From an uncultured archaeon (lineage in GTDB: Archaea; Asgardarchaeota; Jordiarchaeia; Jordiarchaeales; Jordiarchaeaceae), in the NCBI GenBank assembly GCA_964510585.1, contig CAZECW010000020.1:30001-62000 (forward strand): a stretch of DNA of 32,000 bases, read 5' to 3'. The notes beneath the pieces are model-generated. The model saw only the letters and a list, made by a program, of their open reading frames with translations. It ran no database searches and had not been told where the DNA came from. The position numbers were made by a program, and so were the translations under genes. Shown here in pieces: positions 22,407 through 24,785 of the stretch (within the stretch, counting starts at the first letter, position 1; every line of letters begins with the position of its first letter).

Positions 22407-22593
22407 AAGGTTTAAAGTAGATTATTTATTCAGAGAGCTTAACATTTTAAATAAGTAATAGTTTGGCCAGGGCTTATTTGGTTTTTTGAGTCGGGCTAGT
22501 CATGTTGTCTCTCCTAAACCTATTTTGTTTATAAAAAGGTATTATGAGTTGCTAAACTGGTTTGATGCAATTACAATGCAGGGATTTGTCTTG

Positions 22594-22911
22594 ATGAGTG
22601 ATAAACAGAAAAAAGCAGGAAAAATATTGGATGACCCCAATAGTTCCGTCCTTGTGGAGACTAAAAAGTTGGAAGACTTTAAATGTGGAAACTGCAGTGA
22701 ACCGCTATTAATGCATGTTTACTTAAAAGGAGATAAACATGAGCGAATAGTGGAATGTAAACATTGCGGGATAAGCTTTCCACTAGATAAAAGTAAGAGA
22801 TCCAATGGGGCCAAGGTAAACTCTTCAAATAGTGAAGACGTAAAAGGGAACAATAAGAAGGATAGCGGTAAGAAAGAGAGTATGGTGGAGCGGCTTGTTC
22901 GGTCATGGTGA
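22594..22911 (+). CDS. Zinc-ribbon protein
   Basis: CGNC...CKHC with a low-complexity charged tail. Start set to ATG 22594; the ORF is open from 22486. Overlaps the next gene start. Confidence 0.65.
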   Translation: MSDKQKKAGKILDDPNSSVLVETKKLEDFKCGNCSEPLLMHVYLKGDKHERIVECKHCGISFPLDKSKRSNGAKVNSSNSEDVKGNNKKDSGKKESMVERLVRSW

Positions 22912-23486
22912 GAAAAGTTAGATTCAAGTGCGTTAAGTGTGGTAACTGCTGCAGGGACAGGAACTCCATTGTTACCATTACGAATAGGGACATTATCCGA
23001 CTAGTGGACTACTTGAAGTGCGATCTTAAGGAACTTTTACAAAAATATGTTGGTTTCTATCAAGTTAGGAAAGAATTGGAGAACAGACTGGTTTTCCCAG
23101 CTATTTCCACATTTAGGGGCAACGCCTTCTTGGGGTTGAGAAAGAAGGACGATGGTTCATGTGTATTTTTGAAGGGTAACCTCTGCGGGATTTATGAGGG
23201 GAGACCTATGGTTTGCCGGAGTTTCCCATTTATCTTTGAGGTTAAGAAAGGTTGGCTATCCTGGGGCTTGATGGCCAGGGCTGAAAACATTTGTCTGGGA
23301 TTGGGGCGGGGAAAAAGGATTTCGGAGAAAAATCTGGAGATACTGGGAAAACAAGTAATAGAAGAGCTTGAGCAATATAGGAAAATAGTTTCGGCTTGGA
23401 ACAATCAGGAAAAGGCAGAGCAACTGGACCCCATATTGTTGGTTTCCTCATTTCTTGAAGAAGCAAAATTATTTCCTCCTCAATAA
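22905..23486 (+). CDS. YkgJ-family cysteine cluster (CxxCxxCC, putative Fe-S/Zn) protein
   Basis: FKCVKCGNCC, CVFL...CGIYEGRPMVCRSFPF and C-x-GLG. Confidence 0.9.
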   Translation: MVRKVRFKCVKCGNCCRDRNSIVTITNRDIIRLVDYLKCDLKELLQKYVGFYQVRKELENRLVFPAISTFRGNAFLGLRKKDDGSCVFLKGNLCGIYEGRPMVCRSFPFIFEVKKGWLSWGLMARAENICLGLGRGKRISEKNLEILGKQVIEELEQYRKIVSAWNNQEKAEQLDPILLVSSFLEEAKLFPPQ

Positions 23487-23645
23487 ACCTGAATTATAAT
23501 TCTCAAATTTTATCTGTAGCAGATAGTAATTGCAACAAAATTTCTTTTGGGATTATGCTTTTGTCGAAGAAAGGGGTAATATTTAATAACACAAGTTACT
23601 ATTTATACACTGGCTCTATTCTAGTTTTAGGGGAGTGAAGTTGTC

Positions 23646-24149
23646 GTGAAGTTAGAGGAAGCGGCTCGGAAGGCTATTGAGCTCTTGAGAGAAGCAGGCG
23701 ACACTGGAATATATAATACTGAACTGGCACAAAAACTCAAGGTTCCAAAAAGGCGAATATACGATATAGTGAATCCTCTTAAACCTCTGGGACTGGTAGA
23801 AATAAAAAAGGAGAGAGGAAAAACTAAGGTTTATTGGTCTGCAAAGAAGGAGTCGGTTCTCAAACAGGGAATGAGAGAACCTATGAAAGAGGAAGATAAG
23901 AAGCTAAAAATTGACACCGTTAAACTTGTTCAAGGGGAACAGATTATTGAACCCCTTTCCGAAGAGGGTATGGAAGAGGGATTCAAATTTAATTGTCAGG
24001 TTCTGAAAATAAGTTGCAACAATCCCTTAAAAACTTGTAAAGTGTACCATAATGGACTGGAGGTTGTCATCGAAACCGACGACCAAAGCCTAATAGTTAA
24101 ACCAGATACATTGAAACCCAAAACACCAAAGATAAAAACAATATTCTAA
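23646..24149 (+). CDS. E2F/DP-like winged-helix DNA-binding protein
   Basis: IELLREAGDTGIYNTELAQKLKVPKRRIYDIVNPLKPLGLVEIKK...KVYW contains the E2F/DP KRRIYD signature. GGGGAGTGA SD before the GTG. Confidence 0.78.
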   Translation: MKLEEAARKAIELLREAGDTGIYNTELAQKLKVPKRRIYDIVNPLKPLGLVEIKKERGKTKVYWSAKKESVLKQGMREPMKEEDKKLKIDTVKLVQGEQIIEPLSEEGMEEGFKFNCQVLKISCNNPLKTCKVYHNGLEVVIETDDQSLIVKPDTLKPKTPKIKTIF

Positions 24150-24276: not shown

Positions 24277-24654
24277 TTAGATGAGGCGCATTTCAATTTT
24301 ATTTCCCCTTTTCACCTTCTCAAATACTTGAAGGTTCTTTGTGATTTTTCCAACAATGTTCACCTCGGAGTAAGGCTCAATGGGCTTAAAGAATATGCAC
24401 AAGGCGTCACCCATGCTCCAATAAGCAATTGTCCCCTTTTCAACTTCTTTTGTGGCCTTTTCTAGTCCTTTTTTGATTCCAACATTAAAATATACTTCAC
24501 TATTCTTCCACACGTTTACTCTACCCGAGATGGGAAGTTTATCTCTGATGGCTTCTACTGTTAGGGGGGCATGAATTCTGTTAAGTTCACCCTCAGCTTC
24601 ACCTATCCCCTCAATGATAAATTTTACCTTGAACCTTGACAAACTCTCAGACAT
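24277..24654 (-). CDS. Cyclophilin-like fold protein (DUF369-type)
   Basis: APLTVEAIRDKLPI, W..EVYF and GTIAYWSMGDALCIFF...VNIVGKI. Start set to ATG 24654. Confidence 0.85.
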   Translation of the reverse strand: MSESLSRFKVKFIIEGIGEAEGELNRIHAPLTVEAIRDKLPISGRVNVWKNSEVYFNVGIKKGLEKATKEVEKGTIAYWSMGDALCIFFKPIEPYSEVNIVGKITKNLQVFEKVKRGNKIEMRLI

Positions 24655-24785
24655 AATAGATTCCCCAAAAAAAATTTTAAACTTCGCACCACACACAAAC
24701 TATGAAAATATTTTTCATAGGCAATAAAAGGTTTTTCGTACTGTTTTATGTTTGTGAACAAGGCTGGTTCCAAGAATTACAATTT

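Follow-up and report, generated by a model that had tools for sequence, protein, structure and literature searches.

A Jordarchaeia member of the Asgard E2F/DP family with a winged helix and a constrained C-terminal beta domain

Eme et al. 2023 (Nature 618:992, Suppl. 4.1.5) reported homologues of the eukaryotic E2F/DP transcription factors, with conserved base-contact residues, in most groups of Asgard archaea and in no other archaea. The homology was described as confined to the DNA-binding domain (DBD), the dimerisation domain being missing in the Asgard proteins (Eme et al. 2023, Nature 618:992). Asgard E2F homologues are also mentioned, as reported, in a review. In E2F/DP proteins the RRxYD motif contacts the GCGC core (PMC4862756, citing Zheng 1999). 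The ESP sequence table of Eme et al. 2023 contains an entry, Jordarchaeia_QZMA23B3_12990, which is ~95% identical over all 167 residues to the protein described here, and a second Jordarchaeia entry, Jordarchaeia_GBS06_19740, is identical or nearly so to one of our homologues, P0014. The E2F/DP-like gene was therefore already known, from the published family and from this Jordarchaeia orthologue, and the preliminary description of this DNA had been right to caution that novelty needed checking. Judged by its sequence, the protein belongs to the published Asgard E2F/DP family (arCOG02749), in which it is the single member from Jordarchaeia. It does not itself differ from the Asgard homologues of Eme et al. 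2023, having the same PF02319 domain and the same conserved base-contact residues. As compared to the description given there, we find a constrained C-terminal beta domain throughout the family, with a coiled coil ahead of it in most long forms.

The gene lies in a stretch of 32,000 nucleotides (the window) from a hot-spring Asgard archaeon whose genome has 3.78 Mb and is 96% complete. The names of close homologues and the near-identical published entry assign this archaeon to the class Jordarchaeia. The gene and its upstream signals are as follows.

23578..23589 (+), putative BRE/TATA promoter element AATATTTAATAA, ~57 nt upstream of the start codon; an invariant block in four Jordarchaeia-type loci
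23630..23637 (+), Shine-Dalgarno-like ribosome-binding site GGGGAGTG, 8 nt 5' of the GTG; invariant in 4/4 aligned orthologous loci
23646..24149 (+), E2F/DP-like CDS, 167 aa, complete, GTG start and TAA stop

The GTG codon, GGGGAGTG and AATATTTAATAA were all kept in the orthologous loci, while the spacer was otherwise only ~73% identical; the AATATTTAATAA box would serve as the promoter. We obtained 16 full-length homologues of the 167-aa protein, with 60-99% identity. The ratio dN/dS, determined by the Nei-Gojobori method against a same-genus orthologue and also against a still closer one, was 0.17 for the whole gene in the same-genus comparison. On the evidence of the conserved start, the ribosome-binding site, the TATA-like box and dN/dS, 23646-24149 is a genuine gene. 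Near-identical DNA is present in hot-spring metagenomes from independent studies. An RNA-seq library of another study yielded a contig of 341 nt, 96% identical, that spans 23629-23966; it covers the gene only in part, is no proof of transcription and hints only weakly at expression in a relative.

The N-terminal part of the protein was assigned as follows.

23646..23843 (+), E2F_TDP winged-helix DNA-binding domain, residues 1-66: helices 3-17 and 24-31, recognition helix 35-45, wing strands 51-56 and 59-64
23751..23765 (+), RRIYD (R36-D40) on helix 3, the motif by which E2F/DP proteins recognise DNA

From the string LAQKLKVPKRRIYDIVNPLKPLGLVEIKK...VYW, which we located at residues 27-64, an E2F/DP-type winged helix with RRxYD had been proposed in an archaeon, and profile, PDB, reciprocal and tree analyses now back this proposal. 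In the Pfam search, E2F_TDP (PF02319) was the top profile, matching residues 4-64 with 40.4 bits against a gathering cut-off of 25.7 (E 2.4e-10), and the whole-genome scan scored the same match at 41.9 bits. TrmB, the second-best profile, reached 26.7 bits (cut-off 25.6), and the remaining HTH families all stayed below their cut-offs. The outcome named beforehand as speaking against the proposal, a best match to TrmB or another wHTH family and none to E2F_TDP, did not occur. NCBIfam has no model for an E2F/DP-like protein, and its TrmB and Lrs14 matches were weak. When the protein was compared with the PDB by phmmer, the only significant matches were E2F8 (4yo2, 1.1e-5) and E2F4 (1cf7, 1.6e-4), with KRRIYDIVNPL aligned against RRRIYDIVNVL and KRRIYDITNVL of these proteins. 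R36, R37, D40 and W64 were invariant and Y39 was at least 90% conserved in the 47 aligned sequences; R36-R37-I38-Y39-D40 lies within the predicted helix 35-45, and W64 closes the wing.

Comparison with the E2F4 structure, as had been suggested, gave a superposition of the modelled DBD with an rmsd of 1.5 A over 62 residues at 40% identity, the highest identity and a near-lowest rmsd among the fold-search matches. The top fold matches overall, in Foldseek as well as VIA, were ArsR, MarR and IclR proteins, in searches that cannot discriminate among winged helices. Their rows cover residues 1-79, and the beta domain thus fell outside this test. A family profile searched against 1.8 billion representative proteins retrieved ~36 clusters of small archaeal proteins (72-257 aa) at E below 1e-10, followed mostly by E2Fs of eukaryotes, both typical and atypical, in nearly all of which RRxYDxxN is present.

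Typical E2F/DP proteins (1cf7; CC-MB, e.g. 5tuu) share with the archaeal protein the winged helix, RRxYD and the wing Trp, and with most archaeal relatives the order of DBD, coiled coil and then a beta-rich domain. In contrast, the archaeal protein has 167 aa, as compared to 300-450 aa; it lacks a match to PF16421 or PF08781 and, by search, the CC-MB module; it has no transactivation or pocket-protein-binding tail, since the chain stops 12 residues past the beta domain; and the host genome has no Rb_A match above cut-off. As the gene is single-copy, there is no partner for an E2F/DP heterodimer. The atypical E2Fs (E2F7/E2F8/DEL) provided the best PDB sequence match (4yo2, 1.1e-5), the helix-3 string RRIYDIVN is that of their first DBD, and they and the archaeal protein alike work without DP. 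However, atypical E2Fs carry two tandem DBDs per chain and the archaeal protein carries one, which groups in the tree with archaeal sequences, outside both atypical DBD clades.

Small proteins of the family were found under the names of Thor-, Hel-, Loki-, Odin-, Baldr-, Ran-, Jord- and Kari-archaea, and NCBI labels some small Asgard relatives 'E2F family transcription factor'. PF02319 was above cut-off in 136 of 400 Asgard species genomes, representing 40 of 85 genera and many classes, and in none of 14 control genomes, mostly as a single copy per Asgard genome. The distribution is patchy by family (f8 0/31, f11 0/22, f20 3/135). The genome under study holds one E2F_TDP copy, and its scan gave no E2F_CC-MB, DP (PF08781) or RB_A match above cut-off. 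In a tree of the DBD, from which the N-terminally truncated P0048 was excluded, all 46 archaeal rows fell on one side of a 99/95 branch, apart from the sampled eukaryotic E2Fs, and the Jord rows formed a 95/90 clade. The tree was built without DP sequences and hence cannot place the family as E2F against DP.

A second, divergent E2F_TDP subfamily with KKRRIYDVLDVL was seen at L012:1495-1953, L026:1932-2405 and L028:4241-4684. Its C-terminus differs, beginning with CVVNVDV/LFPSxDYK. The subfamily resembles the Hermodarchaeia entry in the table of Eme et al. In family f26 a divergent copy occurs alongside a copy of the coiled-coil type, and the two could be an archaeal two-paralogue pair.

The rest of the chain consists of two parts.

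23844..23975 (+), linker, acidic and lysine-rich, residues 67-110; predicted disordered except for a short helix at 66-73
23976..24110 (+), family-specific C-terminal beta domain, residues 111-155; strands 120-124, 131-135, 140-144 and 149-153

The AlphaFold model, made with a 47-sequence alignment, placed the beta domain as a four-strand meander with pLDDT 80-86, and pLDDT was <50 at residues 76-109 of the linker. By part, dN/dS against the same-genus orthologue was ~0.09 for residues 1-66, ~0.45 for residues 67-110 and ~0.04 for residues 111-155; against the closer orthologue the values were 0 for the winged helix, ~0.96 for the linker and ~0.04 for the beta domain. Thus, the protein comprises two constrained domains with a nearly neutral linker between them, and purifying selection on the C-terminal beta domain is as strong as that on the DNA-binding domain. 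The ~45-residue C-terminal domain is common to all 46 aligned relatives, of the long, short and Jord types, with the consensus hKFxxxxlxI...I..V...G.EVvIE....G.iV.P. Within it, C123, C131 and H135 are conserved in the Jordarchaeia form alone, and C116 varies within Jordarchaeia, being Tyr in P0013.

Family members differ only in the segment ahead of this domain. A heptad coiled coil of ~40 residues precedes the beta domain in 25 of 26 long non-Jordarchaeia forms, and weak bZIP, HALZ and YabA-type matches were obtained with coiled-coil-type relatives. The ~115-aa Heimdall/Kari-type forms have no segment at all between the DBD and the C-terminal domain. The Jordarchaeia linker, which is acidic and contains Pro/Gly, had heptad scores of 0.40-0.60, as compared to 0.66-0.93 in the same 25 of 26 long homologues. 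From these sequences, Jordarchaeia would appear to have exchanged the coiled coil of other Asgard lineages for a fast-evolving linker.

The C-terminal ~45 aa (FKFNCQVLKISC...VYHNGLEVVIETD..LIVKP, located at residues 112-153) had been described as beta-rich and as a possible counterpart of the marked box. The four predicted strands bear out the first half of this statement; hhalign, Pfam, PDB-profile and stand-alone Atlas searches did not uphold the second. In the Pfam search the 167-aa protein matched neither PF16421 (E2F_CC-MB) nor PF08781 (DP), and neither profile matched at E<=10 in a search of 10 coiled-coil-type relatives. Comparison of C-terminal and beta-domain alignments by hhalign with eukaryotic marked-box/CC-MB alignments, built from the E2F sequences matched in the analysis, gave a Prob of <1% for the beta domain against the marked box (E 0.17-0.6) and of <1.5% for the beta parts overall, and coil against coil alone gave E 0.005. 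The PDB profile search with the beta domain returned no significant match (best E 0.27), and with coil plus beta it returned generic coiled coils only, E2F4 (5tuu_B, E 0.31) being matched in its coil part only. With the C-terminus as a stand-alone sequence, the Atlas language-model search found no usable match. When residues 105-167 were searched in whole-protein context, E2F_CC-MB clusters appeared at 0.78 and 0.76, below the reliability line of 0.9; this match, a lead only, may borrow its context from the DBD. Homology of the beta domain with the marked box thus received no support from profile-profile, Pfam, PDB-profile or stand-alone language-model tests. By eye, a likeness can be seen between the C-terminal domain and the closing strands of the E2F marked box. 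The non-significant match at E 0.27 is to a KH region of archaeal CPSF (2ycb), with the likeness at residues 136-153 (24051-24104) and the shared string EV-IE---PG--V.

The gene order, fully conserved in Jordarchaeia, runs Alba, a small Zn-ribbon gene, a CxxCxxCC gene, the E2F-like gene, a cyclophilin-like gene and a 2-epimerase-like gene. Upstream of the E2F-like gene, the Zn-ribbon gene (22486-22911, +) overlaps the CxxCxxCC (PF03692) gene (22905-23486, +) by 7 nt, and this order is kept in other Jordarchaeia-type loci (L001, L002). The downstream neighbour is convergent.

24277..24696 (-), cyclophilin-like protein (PF04126, TM1367-like), Pfam 98.4 bits

The PDB matches of this protein, 1zx8, 2ka0 and 2nnz, are all hypothetical proteins. 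Synteny across Asgard genomes, a comparison that had been suggested earlier, placed the PF04126 gene next to the E2F-like gene in 11 families, nine with the pair tail-to-tail and two with it co-directional (loci L006, L016-L018, L020, L025, L027, L030, L033 and L035); it is the sole neighbour that persists across the phylum. The gaps in tail-to-tail pairs range from tens to ~400 nt. In four families, all with short or divergent forms, the two genes lie apart, and so they do in f16, which has the long form. PF04126 was found in 269 of 400 Asgard genomes, much more widely than the E2F-like gene; the link between the two is therefore positional, and phyletic co-occurrence of the two families fails. 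Within the cyclophilin-like gene, extra short contigs from two hot-spring runs, of much higher depth (40-57 as compared to 13-14), matched the 45-nt stretch 24582-24626 only, which suggests a short sequence that is repeated elsewhere or present in other organisms.

Searches for target sites were carried out near the gene, in the window and genome-wide. Neither CGC nor GCG occurs in the 160 nt upstream of the E2F/DP-like gene; no E2F-type site was found upstream of it, and self-regulation through such sites was not seen here. GCGC-type words stand upstream of the E2F-like gene in some other lineages only. Genome-wide, canonical E2F consensus words were at expectation, with no enrichment. TTTSSCGC occurred six times in the 32,000-nt window against 2.5 expected, and all six sites were judged to lie inside ORFs. 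The over-represented intergenic 8-mers were repeat-derived and CRISPR-like, none of them operator-like. In crude intergenic DNA of the same genome outside the window, such 8-mers merged into longer strings, among them GGGAACGGCGTCT and CTCCGCGACTA, with about 50-88 copies, and a further merged string, AAGTCGGGGGC, had 84-139 copies; all three are probably CRISPR or other repeat families.

We consider it probable, with good confidence, that the protein is a small sequence-specific DNA-binding regulator which recognises a GC-rich core through RRIYD and forms a homodimer through its C-terminal part. By analogy with E2F/DP, the recognition helix would read a GC-rich, GCGC-like core in the major groove. 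The form most likely to bind would be a homodimer held by the C-terminal part, on a two-half-site operator near archaeal promoters; we infer a homodimer because the gene is single-copy, matches to DP, CC-MB and Rb are lacking, and most long relatives have a leucine-zipper-like coil. In Jordarchaeia a flexible tether would stand in place of the zipper, and pairing would be left to the beta domain. Against this reading, the Jord protein lacks the very coiled coil that makes pairing plausible in its relatives. The 160 nt upstream without CGC or GCG, the canonical E2F sites at expectation in the genome and the six window sites judged to lie inside ORFs also count against it. The homodimer prediction for residues 80-167 gave a score of 0.40 (mark 0.42), which is counted neither for nor against pairing. 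A cell-cycle role for the archaeal protein is only an analogy.

If the E2F likeness had arisen by chance or convergence, the protein would be an ordinary archaeal regulator of the TrmB, MarR or Lrs14 type, as might be read from the TrmB profile just over its Pfam cut-off, the weak NCBIfam TrmB and Lrs14 matches and the ArsR, MarR and IclR proteins heading the fold matches. This account is largely refuted and has very little probability left: E2F_TDP is ahead of TrmB by 14 bits, the PDB sequence matches are to E2Fs only, the reciprocal profile search leads, after the archaeal family, mostly to eukaryotic E2Fs, RRxYD and the wing Trp are invariant, and E2F4 combines the best identity with a near-lowest rmsd. 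Nor does a recent horizontal transfer from a eukaryote, which would make the gene uninformative on Asgard ancestry, appear at all credible. The patchy occurrence in Asgard families (f8, f11, f20) would fit it, but members of the family occur in many Asgard classes and in 40 of 85 genera, a well-supported branch sets all archaeal DBDs apart from the sampled eukaryotic E2Fs, both the C-terminal domain and the conserved neighbour are peculiar to archaea, and the gene has a typical archaeal promoter, a Shine-Dalgarno sequence and a GTG start.

The beta domain may instead be a sensor or partner-binding module, taking up a metal through C123/C131/H135 or binding the cyclophilin-like protein, with DNA bound as a monomer or wing-to-wing; we regard this as unlikely, though clearly less so than transfer or convergence. 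The Cys/His residues conserved in the Jordarchaeia form, the cyclophilin-like gene adjacent in 11 Asgard families and the missing coiled coil of the Jord protein are in its favour. However, those Cys/His residues are missing in all other lineages with the beta domain, C116 is not invariant even in Jordarchaeia (Tyr in P0013), PF04126 is common in families poor in E2F (f2 5/5, f11 20/22, f20 104/135), and the pair is mostly convergent and thus not an operon. A doubtful further reading, about as improbable as a sensor, takes the coil and the four-stranded beta domain to be an archaeal forerunner of the eukaryotic coiled-coil/marked-box pairing module; the DBD-CC-MB layout would then be pre-eukaryotic and at first homodimeric, and Jordarchaeia would have lost the coil secondarily. 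The same order of parts and the Atlas matches in whole-protein context (0.78, 0.76) are compatible with a forerunner, which, if true, would be at odds with the published description of the Asgard homologues as lacking the dimerisation domain. Our preferred reading remains the homodimeric, sequence-specific regulator.

Few transcription factors of the eukaryotic cell cycle have relatives among prokaryotes. E2F/DP is one that does, in Asgard archaea alone; any Asgard member of the family is thus a handle on the origin of G1/S-type control. The Jordarchaeia copy makes no addition to the published catalogue. The analysis goes slightly past the published account in the swap of coil for linker, in the single copy without a DP or Rb match, and in the cyclophilin-like neighbour in 11 families. 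The C-terminal domain, the coiled coil and the cyclophilin-like neighbour open the family to cheap tests of oligomeric state, DNA site and partner binding.
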